This document shows positions 8,445 to 43,413 of a stretch of DNA of 64,000 bases, piece after piece. The position numbers were made by a program, and so were the translations under genes. Each line of letters starts with the position of its first letter. Position 1 is the first letter of the stretch. Where the stretch lies: the NCBI RefSeq assembly GCF_988242995.1, contig NZ_OZ547043.1. One strand, 5' to 3'. The notes beneath the pieces were generated by a model, which searched no databases, was not told the origin of the DNA, and saw only the letters and a list, made by a program, of their open reading frames with translations.

Positions 8445-8469
8445 AAAAGCGCCTGCGGGCGCTTTTTTT
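8445..8469 (+). terminator. Rho-independent terminator of serS
   Basis: aaaaagcgcctgcgggcgcttttttt: GC stem agcgcc/ggcgct with a T7 run, directly after the serS stop. Confidence 0.65.
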
Positions 8470-9180
8470 GTGCACAGAAAACCCCCAGCTAGGCTGGGGG
8501 TTCCGGAAAGCTTTCAGCTTTGAGCCAGTTATTAAAACCCCTTTTGATTTGTTAAAACACCTTGCGGTCTGGCAACTGCAAGTGTCAAACAAGAAATCAA
8601 AAGGGGGTCCCAATGGGGGACGAAAAGAGCTTAGCGCACACCCGCTGGAACTGTAAATATCACATAGTTTTTGCGCCGAAATACCGAAGACTGGCGTTTT
8701 ACGGAGAGAAGCGTAGGGCGATAGGCAGTATTTTGAGAAAGCTGTGTGAGTGGAAAAGCGTACGGATTCTGGAAGCAGAGTGCTGCGCAGATCATATCCA
8801 TATGCTTGTGGAAATCCCACCCAAAATGAGCGTATCCGGCTTTATGGGATATCTGAAAGGGAAAAGCAGTCTGATGCTTTACGAGCAGTTTGGGGATTTG
8901 AAATTCAAATACAGAAACAGGGAGTTCTGGTGCCGAGGGTACTATGTCGATACGGTGGGTAAGAACACGGCGAAGATACGTGACTACATAAAGCACCAGC
9001 TTGAAGAGGATAAAATGGGGGAGCAGTTATCGATTCCATATCCGGGCAGCCCGTTTACGGGCCGTAAGTAACGAAGTTGAATGCAAATGTCAGATCGTAT
9101 GCGCCTGTTAGGGCGCGGCTGGTAACAGAGCCTTACAGGCGCATTTGAAAAACCTCCGGCTATGCCGGAGGATATTTATT
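8467..9180 (+). mobile_element. IS200 insertion sequence, copy 1 (IS200/IS605 family, ~714 bp)
   Basis: Identical to the second copy at 13344..14057 over ~714 bp (both boundaries offset by 4877 bp); encodes IS200 TnpA; left-end hairpin aacccccag/ctgggggtt at 8480..8502 and right-end hairpins including cctccggc/gccggagg. Ends are inferred from where the two copies' flanks diverge, so +/- a few bp. Confidence 0.85.
8613..9071 (+). CDS. tnpA: IS200 transposase TnpA (Y1/HUH transposase, 152 aa)
   Basis: MGDEKSLAHTRWNCKYHIVFAPKYRR...HIHMLVEIPPKMSVS...YYVDTVGKN is the IS200 TnpA sequence with the HuH motif and catalytic Tyr; start taken at the internal Met of ORF 8562..9071. Confidence 0.9.
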   Translation: MGDEKSLAHTRWNCKYHIVFAPKYRRLAFYGEKRRAIGSILRKLCEWKSVRILEAECCADHIHMLVEIPPKMSVSGFMGYLKGKSSLMLYEQFGDLKFKYRNREFWCRGYYVDTVGKNTAKIRDYIKHQLEEDKMGEQLSIPYPGSPFTGRK

Positions 9181-13318: not shown

Positions 13319-13346
13319 AACCGGGGTTTCGACCCCGGTTCTCTTT
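13319..13346. terminator. Hairpin after dmsC (aaccgggg...ccccggtt), probably the native bidirectional dmsC/ycaC terminator
   Basis: Perfect 8-bp GC-rich stem with a T-rich tail ctcttt; lies between the dmsC stop and the left end of IS200 copy 2. Confidence 0.5.
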
Positions 13347-14057
13347 GTGCACAGAAAACCCCCAGCTAGGCTGGGGGTTCCGGAAAGCTTTCAGCTTTGA
13401 GCCAGTTATTAAAACCCCTTTTGATTTGTTAAAACACCTTGCGGTCTGGCAACTGCAAGTGTCAAACAAGAAATCAAAAGGGGGTCCCAATGGGGGACGA
13501 AAAGAGCTTAGCGCACACCCGCTGGAACTGTAAATATCACATAGTTTTTGCGCCGAAATACCGAAGACTGGCGTTTTACGGAGAGAAGCGTAGGGCGATA
13601 GGCAGTATTTTGAGAAAGCTGTGTGAGTGGAAAAGCGTACGGATTCTGGAAGCAGAGTGCTGCGCAGATCATATCCATATGCTTGTGGAAATCCCACCCA
13701 AAATGAGCGTATCCGGCTTTATGGGATATCTGAAAGGGAAAAGCAGTCTGATGCTTTACGAGCAGTTTGGGGATTTGAAATTCAAATACAGAAACAGGGA
13801 GTTCTGGTGCCGAGGGTACTATGTCGATACGGTGGGTAAGAACACGGCGAAGATACGTGACTACATAAAGCACCAGCTTGAAGAGGATAAAATGGGGGAG
13901 CAGTTATCGATTCCATATCCGGGCAGCCCGTTTACGGGCCGTAAGTAACGAAGTTGAATGCAAATGTCAGATCGTATGCGCCTGTTAGGGCGCGGCTGGT
14001 AACAGAGCCTTACAGGCGCATTTGAAAAACCTCCGGCTATGCCGGAGGATATTTATT
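13344..14057 (+). mobile_element. IS200 insertion sequence, copy 2 (same orientation as copy 1)
   Basis: Identical to 8467..9180 judging by identical six-frame ORFs and visible sequence; flanks differ on both sides. Right end abuts the ycaC stop codon. Confidence 0.85.
13490..13948 (+). CDS. tnpA: IS200 transposase TnpA (second copy)
   Basis: Translation identical to the TnpA at 8613..9071. Confidence 0.9.
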   Translation: MGDEKSLAHTRWNCKYHIVFAPKYRRLAFYGEKRRAIGSILRKLCEWKSVRILEAECCADHIHMLVEIPPKMSVSGFMGYLKGKSSLMLYEQFGDLKFKYRNREFWCRGYYVDTVGKNTAKIRDYIKHQLEEDKMGEQLSIPYPGSPFTGRK

Positions 14058-31767: not shown

Positions 31768-31794
31768 GTTTTTACTCAAACTTGAACGCGAGAA

Positions 31795-34274: not shown

Positions 34275-36023
34275 ATGCATAACGACAAAGATCTCTCTAC
34301 GTGGCAGACGTTCCGCCGACTGTGGCCAACCATTGCGCCTTTTAAAGCGGGTCTGATCGTGGCGGGCGTAGCGTTAATCCTCAACGCAGCCAGCGATACC
34401 TTCATGTTATCGCTCCTTAAGCCACTTCTTGATGATGGCTTTGGTAAAACAGATCGCTCCGTGCTGGTGTGGATGCCGCTGGTGGTGATCGGGCTAATGA
34501 TTTTACGTGGTATCACCAGCTATGTCTCCAGCTACTGTATCTCCTGGGTATCAGGAAAGGTGGTAATGACCATGCGTCGCCGCCTGTTTGGTCACATGAT
34601 GGGAATGCCAGTTTCATTCTTTGACAAACAGTCAACGGGTACGCTGTTGTCACGTATCACCTACGATTCCGAACAGGTTGCTTCTTCTTCTTCCGGCGCA
34701 CTGATTACTGTTGTGCGTGAAGGTGCGTCGATCATCGGCCTGTTCATCATGATGTTCTATTACAGCTGGCAACTGTCGATCATTTTGATTGTGCTGGCAC
34801 CGATTGTTTCGATTGCGATTCGCGTTGTATCGAAGCGTTTTCGTAACATCAGTAAAAACATGCAGAACACCATGGGGCAGGTGACCACCAGCGCAGAACA
34901 AATGCTGAAGGGCCACAAAGAAGTATTGATTTTCGGTGGTCAGGAAGTGGAAACGAAACGCTTCGATAAAGTCAGTAACCGAATGCGTCTTCAGGGGATG
35001 AAAATGGTTTCAGCCTCTTCCATCTCTGATCCGATCATTCAGCTGATCGCCTCTTTGGCGCTGGCGTTTGTTCTGTATGCGGCGAGCTTCCCAAGTGTCA
35101 TGGATAGCCTGACTGCCGGTACGATTACCGTTGTTTTCTCTTCAATGATTGCACTGATGCGTCCGCTGAAATCGCTGACCAACGTTAACGCCCAGTTCCA
35201 GCGCGGTATGGCGGCTTGTCAGACGCTGTTTACCATTCTGGACAGTGAGCAGGAGAAAGACGAAGGTAAGCGCGTGATCGAGCGTGCGACTGGCGACGTG
35301 GAATTCCGCAATGTCACCTTTACTTATCCGGGACGTGACGTGCCCGCATTGCGTAACATCAACCTGAAAATTCCGGCAGGGAAGACGGTTGCTCTGGTTG
35401 GACGCTCTGGTTCAGGTAAATCAACCATCGCCAGCCTAATCACACGTTTTTACGATATTGATGAAGGCGAAATCCTGATGGATGGTCACGATCTGCGCGA
35501 GTATACCCTGGCGTCGTTACGTAACCAGGTTGCTCTGGTGTCGCAGAATGTCCATCTGTTTAACGATACGGTTGCCAACAACATTGCTTACGCACGGACT
35601 GAACAGTACAGCCGTGAGCAAATTGAAGAAGCGGCGCGTATGGCCTACGCCATGGACTTCATCAATAAGATGGATAACGGTCTCGATACAGTGATTGGTG
35701 AAAACGGCGTGCTGCTCTCTGGCGGTCAGCGTCAGCGTATTGCCATCGCTCGAGCCTTGTTGCGTGATAGCCCGATTCTGATTCTGGACGAAGCTACCTC
35801 GGCGCTGGATACCGAATCTGAACGTGCGATTCAGGCTGCACTGGATGAGTTGCAGAAAAACCGTACCTCTCTGGTGATTGCCCACCGCTTGTCTACCATT
35901 GAAAAGGCAGACGAAATCGTGGTCGTCGAGGATGGTGTCATTGTGGAACGCGGTACGCATAACGATTTGCTTGAGCACCGTGGCGTTTACGCGCAACTTC
36001 ACAAAATGCAGTTTGGCCAATGA
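34275..36023 (+). CDS. msbA: Lipid A flippase MsbA (ABC transporter)
   Basis: ORF 34275..36023, 582 aa, Walker [10 protein letters not shown] and signature LSGGQRQR. Confidence 0.96.
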
Positions 36024-37006
36024 TCGAAAAAATCTGGTCTGGTGAATCCCCTTTGTGGCGGCTATTGCTGCCACTCTCCTGGTTGTATGGCCTGGTGAGT
36101 GGCGCGATCCGTCTTTGCTATAAACTAAAACTGAAGCGCGCCTGGCGTGCCCCCGTACCGGTTGTCGTGGTTGGTAATCTCACCGCAGGCGGCAACGGAA
36201 AAACCCCGGTCGTTGTCTGGCTGGTGGAACAGTTGCAACAGCGCGGTATTCGCGTGGGGGTCGTATCGCGGGGATATGGTGGTAAGGCTGAATCTTATCC
36301 GCTGTTATTGTCGGCAGATACCACCACAGCACAGGCGGGTGATGAACCTGTGTTGATTTATCAACGCACTGGCGCGCCCGTTGCGGTTTCTCCCGTGCGT
36401 TCTGATGCGGTAAAAGCCATTCTGGCGCAACGCCCTGATGTGCAGATCATCGTAACCGACGACGGTTTACAGCATTACCGTCTGGCGCGTGATGTGGAAA
36501 TTGTCGTTATTGATGGTGTGCGTCGCTTTGGCAATGGCTGGTGGTTGCCGGCGGGGCCAATGCGTGAGCGAGCGGGGCGCTTAAAGTCGGTTGATGCGGT
36601 AATCGTCAACGGCGGTGTCCCCCGCAGCGGTGAAATCCCCATGCATCTGCTGCCGGGTCAGGCGGTGAATTTACGTACCGGTACGCGTTGTGACGTTGCT
36701 CAGCTTGAACATGTAGTGGCGATGGCGGGGATTGGACATCCGCCGCGCTTTTTTGCCACGCTGAAGATGTGCGGCGTACAACCGGAAAAATGTGTACCGC
36801 TGGCCGATCATCAGTCTTTGAACCATGCGGATGTCAGCGCGTTGGTAAACGCCGGGCAAACGCTGGTAATGACTGAAAAAGATGCGGTGAAATGCCGGGC
36901 CTTTGCAGAAGAAAATTGGTGGTATTTGCCTGTAGACGCACAGCTTTCAGGTGATGAACCAGCGAAACTGCTTGCGCAACTAACCTCGCTGGCTTCTGGC
37001 AACTAG
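36020..37006 (+). CDS. lpxK: Tetraacyldisaccharide 4'-kinase LpxK
   Basis: ORF 36020..37006, 328 aa, overlaps the msbA stop (ATGA); [13 protein letters not shown]-loop. Confidence 0.95.
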
Positions 37007-37042
37007 TTACGCCGCGGCAGCGTTCGATTGATGGAGTCATGA

Positions 37043-38275
37043 ATGTCGCTGCCGCACCTCTCTCTTGCTGATGCGCGTAATCTTCACCTCGCCGCGCAAG
37101 GCCTGTTAAACAAACCCCGCCGTCGAGCATCGTTGGAGGATATTCCGGCAACGATCTCCCGCATGTCCTTGCTGCAAATCGATACCATTAATATTGTTGC
37201 CCGTAGTCCATATCTGGTGCTTTTCAGTCGTCTGGGAAATTATCCTGCCCAGTGGCTGGATGAGTCTCTGGCGCGTGGCGAATTAATGGAATACTGGGCG
37301 CATGAAGCCTGCTTTATGCCGCGTAGCGACTTTCGTCTTATTCGCCACCGCATGCTGGCACCTGAAAAAATGGGCTGGAAATACAAAGACGCCTGGATGC
37401 AGGAACATGAGGCGGAAATTGCACAGTTAATTCAGCATATTCATGATAAGGGGCCGGTACGTTCAGCCGATTTTGAGCATCCTCGTAAAGGTGCAAGCGG
37501 CTGGTGGGAGTGGAAGCCGCATAAACGGCATCTGGAAGGTTTATTTACAGCCGGGAAAGTGATGGTGATTGAACGGCGCAACTTCCAGCGCGTTTATGAT
37601 TTAACCTACCGTGTCATGCCTGACTGGGATGATGAGCGCGATCTCGTTTCGCAAACAGAAGCAGAAATCATCATGCTGGATAACAGTGCGCGTAGCCTGG
37701 GAATATTCCGCGAACAGTGGCTGGCAGATTACTATCGGCTGAAACGTCCGGCACTGGCAGCGTGGCGCGAAGCGAGGGCTGAACAGCGGCAAATCATTGC
37801 TGTGCATGTTGAAAAATTGGGCAATCTTTGGCTGCATGCTGATTTGCTGCCGCTACTCGAGCGTGCGCTGGCCGGAAAGCTCACTGCAACGCACAGCGCG
37901 GTACTTTCGCCTTTTGATCCTGTTGTCTGGGATCGCAAACGCGCAGAGCAGCTTTTTGATTTTAGCTACCGGCTGGAGTGCTATACCCCAGCGCCGAAAC
38001 GCCAGTATGGCTATTTTGTTCTGCCGTTATTACATCGTGGGCAATTAGTTGGGCGAATGGATGCCAAAATGCATCGCCAGACAGGCATCCTTGAAGTTAT
38101 CTCTCTGTGGTTACAGGAAGGCATTAAACCAACGACAATGCTGCAAAAAGGGTTACGTCAGGCGATTACTGATTTCGCGAGCTGGCAGCAGGCAACGCGG
38201 GTGACATTAGGACGCTGCCCGCAAGGTCTCTTTACTGATTGCCGCACTGGCTGGGAAATAGACCCCGTCGCATAA
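37043..38275 (+). CDS. ycaQ: YcaQ (winged-helix DNA-binding protein, AlkZ-like DNA glycosylase family)
   Basis: ORF 37043..38275, 410 aa, matches YcaQ. Confidence 0.85.
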   Translation: MSLPHLSLADARNLHLAAQGLLNKPRRRASLEDIPATISRMSLLQIDTINIVARSPYLVLFSRLGNYPAQWLDESLARGELMEYWAHEACFMPRSDFRLIRHRMLAPEKMGWKYKDAWMQEHEAEIAQLIQHIHDKGPVRSADFEHPRKGASGWWEWKPHKRHLEGLFTAGKVMVIERRNFQRVYDLTYRVMPDWDDERDLVSQTEAEIIMLDNSARSLGIFREQWLADYYRLKRPALAAWREARAEQRQIIAVHVEKLGNLWLHADLLPLLERALAGKLTATHSAVLSPFDPVVWDRKRAEQLFDFSYRLECYTPAPKRQYGYFVLPLLHRGQLVGRMDAKMHRQTGILEVISLWLQEGIKPTTMLQKGLRQAITDFASWQQATRVTLGRCPQGLFTDCRTGWEIDPVA

Positions 38276-38326
38276 ATGATTATGATAAGATTTATGCATT
38301 CATAACCCGATCCATCTGGAGGAACT

Positions 38327-39252
<926 letters not shown>

Positions 39253-39405
39253 TTTCACTTCACGACACTCCAGCCAATTTTGGGAGGAGTGTCGTACCGT
39301 TACGATTTTCCTCAATTTTTCTTTTCAACAATTGATCTCATTCAGGTGACATCTTTTATATTGGCGCTCATTATGAAAGCAGTAGCTTTTATGAGGGTAA
39401 TCTGA

Positions 39406-40299
39406 ATGGAACAGCTGCGTGCCGAATTAAGCCATTTACTGGGCGAAAAACTCAGTCGTATTGAGTGCGTCAATGAAAAAGCGGATACGGCGTTGTGGGC
39501 TTTGTATGACAGCCAGGGAAACCCAATGCCGTTAATGGCAAGAAGCTTTAGTACGCCCGGAAAAGCCCGACAACTGGCATGGAAAACCACCATGCTGGCA
39601 AGAAGTGGAACTGTCCGTATGCCGACTATTTATGGTGTGATGACGCATGAAGAACACCCCGGCCCCGATGTCCTGCTACTGGAGCGGATGCGTGGTGTTT
39701 CGGTGGAGGCACCAGCCCGAACACCAGAACGCTGGGAACAGCTCAAAGATCAAATCGTTGAAGCCTTACTGGCCTGGCACCGTCAGGACAGTCGCGGTTG
39801 CGTCGGCGCGGTCGACAATACTCAGGAAAATTTCTGGCCCTCATGGTACCGGCAACATGTTGAAGTGCTATGGACCACGCTCAATCAGTTCAATAACACC
39901 GGTCTAACGATGCAGGATAAGCGGATCCTGTTTCGTACTCGCGAATGTCTCCCGGCATTATTTGAAGGCTTTAACGACAATTGTGTGCTGATTCACGGTA
40001 ACTTCTGTTTACGCAGCATGCTGAAAGATTCGCGCAGCGATCAGTTACTGGCGATGGTCGGGCCGGGACTAATGCTTTGGGCACCGCGAGAATACGAACT
40101 GTTCCGACTAATGGATAATTCTCTGGCGGAAGATTTGCTCTGGAGTTACCTGCAACGCGCGCCAGTGGCGGAGTCGTTCATCTGGCGGCGTTGGTTGTAT
40201 GTGTTATGGGATGAAGTTGCGCAACTGGTTAATACCGGACGATTTAGTCGGCGCAACTTCGATCTGGCATCAAAATCACTCTTGCCGTGGCTCGCCTGA
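39406..40299 (+). CDS. ycbJ: YcbJ (putative phosphotransferase/kinase-like protein)
   Basis: ORF 39406..40299, 297 aa, matches YcbJ. Confidence 0.8.
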   Translation: MEQLRAELSHLLGEKLSRIECVNEKADTALWALYDSQGNPMPLMARSFSTPGKARQLAWKTTMLARSGTVRMPTIYGVMTHEEHPGPDVLLLERMRGVSVEAPARTPERWEQLKDQIVEALLAWHRQDSRGCVGAVDNTQENFWPSWYRQHVEVLWTTLNQFNNTGLTMQDKRILFRTRECLPALFEGFNDNCVLIHGNFCLRSMLKDSRSDQLLAMVGPGLMLWAPREYELFRLMDNSLAEDLLWSYLQRAPVAESFIWRRWLYVLWDEVAQLVNTGRFSRRNFDLASKSLLPWLA

Positions 40300-41055
40300 C
40301 GAACTTTTTAGCCACTGCCAGATGCGGCCAAGCGTTTCATAGCCAACACGATCGCTATGCATCAACCAGACTGGAGAAGGGATTGCCCGTTCCCACGGGT
40401 TAAGCGGCGAGTCGATGGCCAACTGATTCGCCGGGGCTGGCAGCGGATTTAACCCTTCCTGCTGAAAAAAGATCATCGCCCGCGGCAAATGAGACGCGGA
40501 TGTCACCAGCAGGAAAGGGGCGTCACCAATTGCCTGTTTCACTGCCGCAGCTTCTTCTTCGGTATCTTTTGGCAAATCCAGAGTGATAATTTGCTCGCGC
40601 GGCACGCCCAGCGATTGCGCAACTCGGGCACCTACTTCGGCTGTACTCACCGTATTGGTTTTTGCTACGCCTCCCGTGAAGATCAGTTTTGATCCCGGAT
40701 TTTCGCGCCATAAGCGAATACCTTCATTCAGGCGGGGCAGACTGTTATTGATTAAATTCGAGCTTGGTGCCCACTGCGGGTTCCAGGTATAACCACCTCC
40801 GAGCACCACGATATAGTCCACTTTTTGCGAATTATTCCATGTCGGATAGGTGCTTTCGATGGGACGCAGCAGGCGGTCGGCTACCGGTTGCAAACTCAAT
40901 AACAAGAGCGCCAGCCACCCAATGCTAATAAAAATCTTCCCGGTTTTTTGAAAACGGCTAAACCACAGCAGCGCCAGGCCAGCGCCAATAATCAACAACA
41001 TTAGCGGAAGTGGCAGCAACATATTGCCAATCACTTTTTTCAGTGTAAAAAGCAT
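40276..41055 (-). CDS. elyC: Envelope biogenesis factor ElyC (YcbC, DUF218)
   Basis: ORF 40276..41055 (-), 259 aa, MLFTLKKVIGNMLLPLPLMLLIIGAGLALLWFSRF; 3' end overlaps ycbJ by 24 bp. Confidence 0.88.
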   Translation of the reverse strand: MLFTLKKVIGNMLLPLPLMLLIIGAGLALLWFSRFQKTGKIFISIGWLALLLLSLQPVADRLLRPIESTYPTWNNSQKVDYIVVLGGGYTWNPQWAPSSNLINNSLPRLNEGIRLWRENPGSKLIFTGGVAKTNTVSTAEVGARVAQSLGVPREQIITLDLPKDTEEEAAAVKQAIGDAPFLLVTSASHLPRAMIFFQQEGLNPLPAPANQLAIDSPLNPWERAIPSPVWLMHSDRVGYETLGRIWQWLKSSSGEPRQE

Positions 41056-41065
41056 CCTTTCTGGT
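41055..41065. repeat. Left copy of the 11-bp IS4 target-site duplication (tcctttctggt)
   Basis: Identical 11-mer directly flanks both IS4 ends (second copy at 42492..42502). Confidence 0.85.
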
Positions 41066-42491
41066 TAATGCCGATCAGTTAAGGATCAGTTGACCGATCC
41101 AGTGGCTGTGTAAGAATCCGGAAACGCTCACTTGTTTCCGGATTTTTTTATGCACATTGGACAGGCTCTTGATCTGGTATCCCGTTACGATTCTCTGCGT
41201 AACCCACTGACTTCTCTGGGGGATTACCTCGACCCCGAACTCATCTCTCGTTGCCTTGCCGAATCAGGTACTGTAACGCTACGCAAGCGCCGTCTTCCCC
41301 TCGAAATGATGGTCTGGTGTATTGTTGGCATGGCGCTTGAGCGTAAAGAACCTCTTCACCAGATTGTGAATCGCCTGGACATCATGCTGCCGGGCAATCG
41401 CCCCTTCGTTGCCCCCAGTGCCGTTATTCAGGCCCGCCAGCGCCTGGGAAGTGAGGCTGTCCGCCGCGTGTTCACGAAAACAGCGCAGCTCTGGCATAAC
41501 GCCACGCCGCATCCGCACTGGTGCGGCCTGACCCTGCTGGCCATCGATGGTGTGTTCTGGCGCACACCGGATACACCAGAGAACGATGCAGCCTTCCCCC
41601 GCCAGACACATGCCGGGAACCCGGCGCTCTACCCGCAGGTCAAAATGGTCTGCCAGATGGAACTGACCAGCCATCTGCTGACGGCTGCAGCCTTCGGCAC
41701 GATGAAGAACAGCGAAAATGAGCTTGCTGAGCAACTTATAGAACAAACCGGCGATAACACTCTGACGTTAATGGATAAAGGTTATTACTCACTGGGACTG
41801 TTAAATGCCTGGAGCCTGGCGGGAGAACACCGCCACTGGATGATACCTCTCAGAAAGGGAGCGCAATATGAAGAGATCAGAAAACTGGGTAAAGGCGATC
41901 ATCTGGTGAAGCTGAAAACCAGCCCGCAGGCACGAAAAAAGTGGCCGGGACTGGGAAATGAAGTGACTGCCCGCCTGCTGACCGTGACGCGCAAAGGAAA
42001 AGTCTGCCATCTGCTGACGTCGATGACGGACGCCATGCGCTTCCCCGGAGGAGAAATGGGGGATCTGTACAGTCATCGCTGGGAAATCGAACTGGGATAC
42101 AGGGAGATAAAACAGACGATGCAACGGAGCAGGCTGACGCTGAGAAGTAAAAAGCCGGAGCTTGTGGAGCAAGAGCTGTGGGGTGTCTTACTGGCTTATA
42201 ATCTGGTGAGATATCAGATGATTAAAATGGCGGAACATCTGAAAGGTTACTGGCCGAATCAACTGAGTTTCTCAGAATCATGCGGAATGGTGATGAGAAT
42301 GCTGATGACATTGCAGGGCGCTTCACCGGGACGTATACCGGAGCTGATGCGCGATCTTGCAAGTATGGGACAACTTGTGAAATTACCGACAAGAAGGGAA
42401 AGGGCCTTCCCGAGAGTGGTAAAGGAGAGGCCCTGGAAATACCCCACAGCCCCGAAAAAGAGCCAGTCAGTTGCTTAACTGACTGGCATTA
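41066..42491 (+). mobile_element. IS4 insertion sequence (1426 bp) with 18-bp imperfect terminal inverted repeats
   Basis: IR-L taatgccgatcagttaag (41066..41083) and IR-R cttaactgactggcatta (42474..42491; reverse complement taatgccagtcagttaag, 16/18 match); encodes an IS4-type DDE transposase; flanked by an 11-bp direct repeat. Confidence 0.9.
41150..42478 (+). CDS. insG: IS4 transposase (InsG-like, DDE family)
   Basis: [24 protein letters not shown]...DKGYYS...[15 protein letters not shown] in ORF 41132..42478; start could be 41132 or 41150. Confidence 0.88.
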
Positions 42492-42502
42492 TCCTTTCTG
42501 GT
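42492..42502. repeat. Right copy of the 11-bp IS4 target-site duplication (tcctttctggt)
   Basis: Identical to 41055..41065. Confidence 0.85.
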
Positions 42503-42627
42503 TCCTTTTTTAACCATATAGCAAGGGATCGCCAGCGATATTACACCAGACGGGTTCATTCTCGCCGTGGCTGTGACAAAATAGCGTCTTTATCAGAAAA
42601 CGTCTTAGCCAACCGGTGGAGAAAGCA

Positions 42628-43413
42628 ATGCAGGATCGCAATTTTGATGATATTGCGGAAAAGTTTTCCCGTAACATTTACGGCACCACCAAAGGGCAGC
42701 TTCGACAGGCTATTCTGTGGCAGGATCTCGATCGCGTGCTGGCGGAAATGGGCCCGCAAAAACTGCGTGTGCTGGATGCTGGCGGTGGAGAAGGGCAGAC
42801 CGCAATCAAAATGGCTGAGCGCGGGCATCAGGTCATTTTATGCGATCTTTCTGCGCAGATGATCGACCGCGCAAAACAGGCGGCAGAAGCAAAAGGTGTG
42901 AGCGACAACATGCAATTTATACATTGCGCCGCTCAGGATGTTGCTTCGCATTTGGAAACGCCCGTTGATCTGATATTGTTCCATGCGGTGCTCGAGTGGG
43001 TGGCCGATCCCCGCAGCGTATTACAGACCCTGTGGTCAGTGTTGCGTCCAGGCGGTGTGTTGTCGTTAATGTTCTACAATGCGCACGGCTTGCTGATGCA
43101 TAACATGGTCGCCGGGAATTTTGATTACGTGCAGGCGGGAATGCCGAAAAAGAAAAAACGGACGCTTTCGCCAGATTATCCACGCGACCCGGCGCAGGTT
43201 TATCTGTGGCTGGAAGAAGCTGGTTGGCAAATTATGGGTAAGACAGGCGTTCGCGTGTTTCATGATTATCTGCGCGAGAAGCACCAGCAGCGCGACTGCT
43301 ATGAAGCATTACTTGAATTAGAAACGCGTTATTGCCGTCAGGAACCGTATATTACCCTGGGGCGTTATATTCATGTCACCGCGCGCAAACCGCAGAGCAA
43401 GGATAAAGTATGA
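42628..43413 (+). CDS. cmoM: SAM-dependent methyltransferase CmoM (SmtA)
   Basis: [38 protein letters not shown] with [11 protein letters not shown] motif; start at the internal Met of ORF 42616..43413; stop overlaps the mukF start. Confidence 0.9.

Follow-up and report, generated by a model that had tools for sequence, protein, structure and literature searches.

Insertion sequences that land in the 5' regions of genes can be polar or can uncouple a gene from its promoter, as in the original gal and lac IS mutations, and elements such as IS1, IS2, IS5, and IS10 (through pOUT) can activate their neighbours by way of outward or hybrid promoters. IS4 reportedly inserts in pseudo-palindromic targets of the form AAA-N20-TTT, as Mayaux et al. 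are said to have described in 1984. For the IS4 family, the transposases are defined by a Y-(2)-R-(3)-E-(6)-K motif, and the target-site duplications (TSDs) known for IS4 range from 10-13 bp (PMC2266710).

The copy described here occupies positions 41066-42491 of the window, by which we mean the whole 64,000-nt stretch of contig NZ_OZ547043.1 (assembly GCF_988242995.1) that was analysed. It is a complete, 1426-bp element on the plus strand, oriented with its transposase toward cmoM, and was identical at 1426/1426 positions to the curated mobile_genetic_element IS4 of Escherichia coli K-12 MG1655 (NC_000913.3), and IS4 copies from distinct loci of other strains likewise matched it with 0 mismatches. 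The element is ISfinder IS4, of the IS4 family and IS4 subgroup. Its terminal inverted repeats, IRL (TAATGCCGATCAGTTAAG, 41066-41083, plus strand) and IRR (TAATGCCAGTCAGTTAAG, 42474-42491, minus strand), were 18 bp each and matched at 16 of the 18 positions. The InsG transposase (41150-42478, plus strand, 442 aa) was intact in a single reading frame without frameshift, was identical to the K-12 InsG protein, and scored 299.6 bits against NCBIfam NF033592 (cutoff 115), with the YREK motif readable in its translation; PGAP-style annotation places the start of this protein at TTG 41132. Judging from the intact ends, the intact transposase, and the fresh TSD, this copy of IS4 is presumably transposition-competent.

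The element was flanked by two perfectly matching 11-bp copies of TCCTTTCTGGT (41055-41065 and 42492-42502), a length within the known range for IS4. The exact repeat around IS4 is 13 nt long (41054-41066 and 42491-42503) because the last and first bases of the element match the flanks by coincidence, and the canonical IS4 ends define the duplication as 11 bp. The left copy covers positions +1 to -10 of elyC and shares base 41055, the A of the elyC ATG, with the coding sequence, placing IS4 between positions -11 and -10 of elyC in the 135-bp gap between elyC and cmoM, with 10 nt between the ATG and the element. The original prediction, made from the letters of this stretch, had described a recent insertion of a 1426-bp IS4 with 18-bp imperfect inverted repeats and this 11-bp duplication, 10 bp upstream of the elyC start within the divergent intergenic region, the left copy of the duplication overlapping the elyC ATG and the transposase reading toward cmoM from an element that ends 136 bp before the cmoM start, and our analysis agreed with it on each of these points. 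When IS4 and one copy of the repeat were removed, the rebuilt empty site matched many E. coli at 100% identity across 800 bp. The closest genome, that of E. coli NY1601, was 100% identical to the window over 42503-64000 (21.5 kb), had 2 mismatches over 36000-41065, and was without IS4 between elyC and cmoM. With a 21.5-kb flank identical to that of an E. coli, a Shigella origin of this DNA was judged unlikely. The empty site was also found in all 10 contigs examined that encode an identical ElyC, and an exact search for the 42-nt junction among JGI metagenome contigs gave 0 matches. Since the empty site was present in 5425 of 5426 complete E. coli genomes, and IS4 occupied the elyC-cmoM site in 0 of the 5426, the insertion is real, recent, and private to one E. 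coli lineage. Taken together, the evidence from the ends, the TSD, the sequence identity, and the empty site far exceeds chance expectation.

The elyC coding sequence (40276-41055, minus strand) was itself an intact reading frame of 259 aa (NF007794, 511.9 bits) with 10 nt of native 5' sequence left, and the ElyC protein was identical to the common allele, the exact protein being present in thousands of assemblies. IS4 lies between the expression signals of the gene and its start codon, and a distance of 1437 bp separates elyC from every conserved upstream element. A phylogenetic footprint placed the displaced blocks at 42501-42549 (minus strand), namely ATGGTTAAAAAAGGAAC (42501-42517) and CTGGTGTAATATC (42537-42549), the second of which contains a candidate elyC -10 element, TAATAT, at 42543-42538. 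Searches of the literature found no mapped transcription start sites for elyC or smtA/cmoM and no paper linking IS4 with elyC or ycbC. The conclusion of the original prediction that elyC was severed from its native promoter stands, everything upstream being separated from the gene by IS4. Its further claim that the gene keeps its ribosome-binding site was not supported. In an alignment of 25 taxa, the conserved Shine-Dalgarno (SD) sequence of elyC was AAGGA at native positions -15 to -11, now found on the minus strand at 42503-42507 and 1.4 kb from the ATG, having been split from the gene because IS4 inserted between -11 and -10. AGGA was present at -17 to -10 of elyC in 76 of 80 Enterobacteriaceae species, and the displaced AAGGA would form an anti-SD duplex of -5.6 kcal/mol. 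Thus, elyC has probably lost its native ribosome-binding site.

Based on these data, we favoured with considerable confidence the reading that a recent, canonical IS4 insertion has most probably silenced or strongly reduced elyC and has had little effect on cmoM-mukFEB. In this sequence of events, canonical IS4 jumped between -11 and -10 of elyC in a single E. coli lineage and created an 11-bp duplication, and the elyC reading frame stayed whole while being parted from all of its conserved upstream elements, including the SD. Transcripts from the displaced native promoter would then meet a terminator-like hairpin at the right end of IS4, the left end offers no outward promoter above background to replace the one that was lost, and elyC would be silenced or strongly down-regulated in both transcription and translation, giving a functional knock-down with an undamaged reading frame.

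The alternative that survives best, although we consider it unlikely, is that elyC is still expressed from an IS4-internal promoter, a hybrid promoter, or read-through, with the retained AGAAAGG as its ribosome-binding site. In its favour, the reading frame is intact and the same as the common allele, but an insertion that happened very recently would leave the reading frame whole just as well. A purine-rich AAGGA does remain beside the ATG, with an anti-SD energy of -5.4 kcal/mol, and is the only such sequence still adjoining elyC, but it overlaps the start codon and ends at +1, so that the SD-AUG spacing is zero or negative, an arrangement known to be non-functional. Moreover, the AGAAAGG that contains the retained purines lies right against the ATG or runs into it, and it lacks conservation; the tract from -8 to -1 was variable, with an SD-like 4-mer in 49 of the 80 Enterobacteriaceae species, in contrast to the conserved AAGGA that was displaced. 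Weak or non-canonical initiation at the elyC ATG is possible.

With respect to transcription, weak promoter-like sites were found on the minus strand of IS4, the best being TTTACC-17-CATATT (41893-41865) with a score of 8.4, but every minus-strand match was at the level of shuffled sequence, in which about 9 matches scoring 6 or more were expected by chance. The sole match at the junction of the left end of IS4 with elyC, TTAACT-17-AAGGAT (6.5 bits), would initiate downstream of the ATG, inside the elyC reading frame. No outward promoter from the left end toward elyC rose above background in the position weight matrix (PWM) scan of the minus strand, and a consensus scan found no outward promoter or -35 element at an IS4 end; we therefore rejected an outward or hybrid IS4 promoter for elyC, all of the matches being at background level. 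The only site to pass the consensus scan was a putative promoter for the transposase on the plus strand (41090-41117), with TTGACC, a 16-nt spacer, TG, and AAGAAT, which scored 12.4 bits and was far over background.

Both ends of IS4 also carry hairpins that resemble inward-facing terminators. The left-end hairpin (41112-41149, plus strand) is an inverted repeat with arms at 41112-41125 and 41134-41147, after which a T7 run leads up to the transposase ATG. It has a predicted RNA fold of -27.6 kcal/mol (z = -6.7) and is terminator-like toward transcripts that arrive from the left; because the hairpin extends over the transposase -10, transcripts of IS4 itself would be made without its left arm. 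The right-end hairpin (42452-42487, minus strand) runs from 42487 to 42462 with an 11-bp stem and a 4-nt loop, is followed by UCUUUUUCGG, was matched in a terminator scan, and has a predicted fold of -25.9 kcal/mol (z = -3.7). It is terminator-like toward transcripts from the displaced elyC promoter region, and those entering IS4 from the right would run into its stem and U-tract. With no outward promoter above background and with terminator-like hairpins facing inward at both ends, elyC is most likely silenced, and the earlier suggestion that an IS4 promoter or read-through might rescue its expression found no support in the sequence. Some elyC mRNA could still arise from weak antisense promoters inside IS4 or where termination is incomplete.

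The position of the insertion is in keeping with the target preference of IS4. The left half of the target motif lies at 41047-41065, and the native site, which continues at 42503-42511, reads AAAAAG-CATCC-TTTCT-GGTTC-CTTTTTT, that is, an A-tract, a pseudo-dyad of CC, loop, and GG, and a T-tract. The motif A4+ N1-5 CC N4-6 GG N1-5 T4+ occurred 3 times in 62.6 kb of the window against an expectation of 0.085, the elyC site being one of the three, and the native site AAAAAGCATCCTTTCTGGTTCCTTTTTT also fits AAA-N20-TTT and resembles the other IS4 sites that were sampled. Most of those other distinct sites (n=13) had the A-tract/hairpin/T-tract arrangement and many were intrinsic terminators, the terminator-type sites being those at zapB-rraA, adhE-tdk, rpoD-mug, typA, eno, bamD-raiA, glgP, yhdZ, and proL. 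The first sample of sites was biased toward query-like flanks because matches were ranked by query coverage; a further 8 sites, sampled in a 'spread' manner, were less biased. The site that IS4 occupies in K-12 does not form a hairpin. The A-run, SD, and Met-Leu-Phe codons of the elyC start region are conserved across Enterobacteriaceae, and IS4 probably chose this region because it resembles the A-tract/hairpin/T-tract targets of IS4 elsewhere.

In the elyC site, as in the terminator sites occupied by IS4 in other E. coli, an A-tract is followed by a short dyad that ends in CC, a T-rich loop of 4-6 nt, GG, and a T-tract, with the insertion in the loop; the TSDs of this group are 11-14 bp. Those other targets, however, are stable hairpins 3' of genes (-13 to -29 kcal/mol), whereas the elyC site is a look-alike of -6 kcal/mol, and insertions in terminators affect the 3' ends of genes, whereas this one affects expression signals through its overlap with the start codon and the SD. 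We rejected the native elyC site as a real terminator on account of this weak fold and its overlap with the start codon. The locus is thus a small example of how a strong IS4 target preference can strike a gene start that resembles a terminator. A broader reading, which we regard as quite doubtful, is that IS4 recognises dyads flanked by A- and T-tracts, such as bidirectional intrinsic terminators, that the start of elyC is a latent look-alike of these, and that the outcome is a clean, reversible-looking knock-down, perhaps selected in warm-host-restricted lineages. If true, the knock-down of elyC would alter enterobacterial common antigen (ECA) and the balance of peptidoglycan precursors.

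On the other side of the element, cmoM (smtA; 42628-43413, plus strand) was intact (NF008264, 504 bits) and, by the annotation of the identical NY1601 region, is the first gene of the cmoM-mukFEB operon; its ATG at 42628 lies 136 nt past the end of IS4. We consider it very unlikely that the insertion acts mainly by altering the expression of cmoM-mukFEB, through transposase read-through or lost upstream regulation, and was perhaps retained on that account. The transposase is co-oriented with cmoM, and termination on the plus strand at the right end may be incomplete because the U-tract of the hairpin in that direction is poor and interrupted (beginning AUUAUCCUUU), but transposase promoters of IS elements are typically weak, and all 135 bp of native intergenic DNA, with every conserved block, remain contiguous with cmoM. 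A candidate core promoter from the PWM scan was intact at 42555-42582 (plus strand), with a -35 of TTCATT (42555-42560), TG at 42574-42575, and a -10 of CAAAAT (42577-42582); each of the two hexamers belongs to a block that is conserved among Enterobacteriaceae, and IS4 ends 63 bp upstream of this -35. The insertion was found in 0 of the 5425 other genomes, giving no sign of recurrent selection. A major change in mukFEB regulation is unlikely because the whole native intergenic region and the candidate promoter elements remain with cmoM, and the earlier proposal of a possible change in the control of the condensin operon was rated weak for the same reason. Finally, an assembly artefact, with a repeated IS4 copy misplaced between elyC and cmoM, seems barely conceivable. 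Some genomes do carry IS4 in many copies (up to 32 places), and the junction was seen in no other genome, but misassembly would not generate a perfect duplication whose 11 bp are just what IS4 produces, a precise excision that recovers the universal empty site, and a site that fits the IS4 target motif.

Under the reading that we favour, in which elyC is knocked down and cmoM-mukFEB is little affected, the relevance is mainly to annotation and to strain phenotype, since gene callers would score elyC as intact and yet its expression is probably absent. In elyC mutants ECA-PG is raised, and the envelope and peptidoglycan are defective at low temperature (PMC3879167, PMC8609368). As elyC is probably unexpressed, the strain may behave as an elyC mutant, and there is no good reason to expect changed MukBEF expression.

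The phenomenon is ordinary biology: a strain-private IS4 transposon insertion with no new element type or mechanism. Compared with IS4 of K-12, the element has the same 1426 bases, the same inverted repeats, and the same 442-aa DDE/YREK transposase, and differs in location alone; the K-12 copy is in a region that also holds nanX and IS911 and IS30 remnants, whereas the copy described here is between elyC and cmoM. As with the activating elements IS1, IS2, IS5, and IS10 pOUT, the end of an IS element directly precedes a gene, but unlike in those cases the left end of IS4 has neither an outward -35 nor a complete promoter that exceeds background. The classical polar insertions are similar in that an IS element with transcription-stopping structures lies between a promoter and a coding sequence, although at elyC the ribosome-binding site has also been split from the ATG, and the loss of expression is predicted from this arrangement.

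The IS4 element was read from the sequence, by repeat detection and direct extraction, as occupying positions 41066-42491 (1426 bp). Its ends, TAATGCCGATCAGTTAAG and the reverse complement of TAATGCCAGTCAGTTAAG, match at 16/18 positions, and the 11-bp target-site duplication (TSD), TCCTTTCTGGT, lies on both flanks at 41055-41065 and 42492-42502, in agreement with the original prediction of a 1426-bp IS4 with 18-bp imperfect terminal inverted repeats and a duplication at these positions. The exact flanking repeat is 13 nt, as against the 11-bp TSD, because terminal IS4 bases happen to equal the adjoining flank bases. All 1426 bases of this copy agree with those of 'insertion sequence:IS4' as curated for E. 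coli K-12 MG1655; copies of IS4 in other strains, located at several different loci, are likewise identical to it. Its transposase, encoded by an intact ORF at 41150-42478, is identical to K-12 InsG, scores 299.6 bits against NF033592 (cutoff 115), and has the family-defining Y-(2)-R-(3)-E-(6)-K signature (PMC2266710). The elyC ORF (40276-41055, minus strand, 259 AA; NF007794, 511.9 bits) has its ATG 10 nt from IS4, with the A inside the TSD, and the cmoM ATG at 42628 (NF008264, 504 bits, and the annotation of an identical region) lies 136 nt past the other end; both distances had been predicted correctly.

When IS4 and one repeat copy were deleted, the resulting 800-bp sequence was 100% identical to many E. 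coli, such as strain 042. This site was a single continuous match in 5425/5426 complete E. coli genomes; IS4 itself was found in 2686 of the 5426 (median one place, maximum 32), at the elyC-cmoM site in none. NY1601, the closest genome and one without this IS4, was 100% identical over 42503-64000 and differed at only two positions over 36000-41065, so that IS4 is the only structural difference over ~28 kb. The elyC-cmoM spacer was 117-137 bp in all 80 Enterobacteriaceae species representatives, so that none of them has an insertion there; the exact IS4 junction had no match in JGI metagenome contigs. The ElyC protein is the common allele. An assembly artefact was rejected, since it would not yield a perfect TSD of the right length at a consensus target. 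Taken together, the data point to a transposition that is real, private to this strain and very recent in evolutionary terms, and the recency proposed earlier is upheld by the perfect TSD, the universal empty site, and the near-identical NY1601 without IS4.

An alignment of the elyC-cmoM intergenic region from 25 taxa, with motif counts over 80 species, revealed four conserved blocks, in elyC orientation CTATTTTGTCAC, GAATGAAC, CTGGTGTAATATC, and ATGGTTAAAAAAGGAAC, the last ending at -9 of elyC. AGGA occurred at -17..-10 in 76/80 species; positions -8..-1 were variable (Klebsiella catctggc, Buttiauxella cataattc), with a Shine-Dalgarno (SD)-like 4-mer in only 49/80. The two AAGGA motifs of E. 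coli had similar anti-SD duplex energies (-5.6 and -5.4 kcal/mol), and the proximal one ends at +1, where an SD is too near the AUG to function. IS4 lies between -11 and -10, which places the conserved SD and all candidate promoter blocks at 42503-42582, a distance of 1.4 kb from the ATG. The predicted severing of elyC from its native promoter thus holds, but the claim that elyC keeps its ribosome-binding site is probably wrong, given the displaced SD, the variable proximal tract, and the proximal AAGGA that ends at +1. The block GATATTACACCAG (42537-42549; CTGGTGTAATATC in elyC orientation) was almost invariant across Enterobacteriaceae genera and could serve as the -10 region of elyC or as a binding site for a regulator; our search found no literature on it. 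Read directly from the minus strand at 42474-42507, the displaced SD and spacer now precede ATA-ATG-CCA-GTC-AGT-TAA in the right IS4 repeat, creating a 4-codon mini-ORF (MPVS) near the former elyC start.

RNA synthesised from the displaced elyC promoter region would run into IS4 at its right end and immediately meet a hairpin with an 11-bp stem and a 4-nt loop, followed by UCUUUUU. It had been proposed that elyC is expressed from a promoter inside IS4 or by read-through; this hairpin and U-tract face any read-through, and a minus-strand PWM scan gave promoter matches at the shuffled-sequence level only, which argues against an outward promoter. The single junction-spanning match, at the left IS4 end, would initiate within the elyC ORF. 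From the displaced SD and promoter blocks, the right-end hairpin, and the lack of a promoter above background in the scan, we infer that elyC is either silent or much reduced in expression, as position and structure support. Since elyC and ycbJ converge, there is no gene downstream of elyC on which the insertion could be polar. Cells tolerate the loss of ElyC at 37 C but show envelope and peptidoglycan defects at room temperature; the loss also raises ECA-PG (PMC3879167, PMC8609368). The case is a warning: elyC looks intact in this strain and yet probably goes unexpressed. The sole strong promoter-like site in IS4, TTGACC-16-TG-AAGAAT (41090-41117), overlaps through its -10 the left arm of a very stable hairpin (41112-41147; -27.6 kcal/mol, z = -6.7), which is followed by T7 and the transposase ATG. 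This hairpin is predicted to form in transcripts from outside and not in those from IS4's own promoter, an arrangement that would represent a typical IS self-protection layout.

The cmoM-mukFEB operon is driven from upstream of smtA/cmoM (PMC7163298, PMC9239193), and the entire native spacer is still joined to cmoM. The best candidate promoter from the PWM scan (TTCATT at 42555, 16-nt spacer, TG, CAAAAT at 42577-42582) begins 63 bp from the IS4 end and coincides with two conserved blocks. The transposase reads in the same direction, with its stop codon in the loop of the right-end hairpin; read-through into cmoM is possible, with no sign of strong transcription. With native spacer and candidate promoter intact, altered regulation of the condensin operon, as suggested originally, and a meaningful effect on MukBEF are unlikely.

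Elsewhere in the window, two 100%-identical IS200C-like elements (~8467-9180 and ~13344-14057, 714 bp shared; TnpA ORFs at 8562-9071 and 13439-13948, NF033573, 143.8 bits) directly follow the terminator hairpins of serS and dmsC. NY1601 has neither; the serS-dmsA site was occupied in 1/5426 complete genomes and the dmsC-ycaC site in 18/5426. IS4 aside, the window is 100% identical to NY1601 over ~36.2-64 kb, compared with only 99.0% over 14-41 kb (255 mismatches, concentrated left of ~36.2 kb), and this contrast between 14056-36200 and 36200-64000 suggests a recombination mosaic.

To compare targets, we retrieved further IS4 copies together with the flanking DNA. A first set, ranked by query coverage and so biased toward flanks like elyC-cmoM, comprised the terminators of zapB-rraA, typA, adhE-tdk, rpoD-mug, proL-yejO, and yhdZ, plus a phage tail gene. 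In a second, less biased 'spread' sample, the eight sites were the terminators of eno, bamD-raiA, glgP, and adhE-tdk (in opposite orientation), hairpin-like sites within fiu and a diguanylate cyclase gene, an IS200 left-end hairpin, and the K-12 site; dyads made up 7/8. In the shared layout an A-tract leads into a short dyad that ends in CC, after which come a T-rich loop, GG, and a T-tract; IS4 is placed in the loop, and TSDs measure 11-14 bp. At elyC the native sequence is AAAAAG-CATCC-TTTCT-GGTTC-CTTTTTT. In the 62.6-kb IS-free window, three places fit a loose regular expression written for this layout, against 0.085 expected: the terminator of serS, a hairpin at 31793 that resembles a terminator, and the start of elyC. 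That the elyC site is a true terminator was rejected, since it folds at only about -6 kcal/mol versus -13 to -29 kcal/mol for true terminators; it is a sequence look-alike. The zapB-rraA terminator (sampled loci L012, L099, L100) carries IS4 in several different strains, as does that of adhE-tdk (L015, L102, L108) in both orientations, which suggests either hot spots that are hit repeatedly or shared insertions of old date. In strain N1024 (L109) an IS200-type element carries IS4 within its left-end hairpin, in the loop (CCCCCAGCTAGGCTGGGGG), and in strain E04 the IS4 match (H68) is broken into three parts that alternate with two copies of IS200C; both are nested IS arrangements.

What the analysis usefully adds is a corrected view of the elyC ribosome-binding site, a rationale for site choice, and the warning on an intact-looking elyC. 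Mayaux et al. reportedly described, in 1984, an AAA-N20-TTT target rule for IS4, and the elyC and K-12 sites both fit it. Strong target-arm specificity has already been described for some IS4-subgroup elements (PMC2266710). The TSD at the elyC site, ATCCTTTCTGGT, is nearly the same as the one at yhdZ, ATCCTTTCGGAT. Full-length identity, inverted repeats, transposase family and motif, TSD length, and target type are all those of IS4: the element is a known IS4 at a new chromosomal position, acting as IS4 is known to act.
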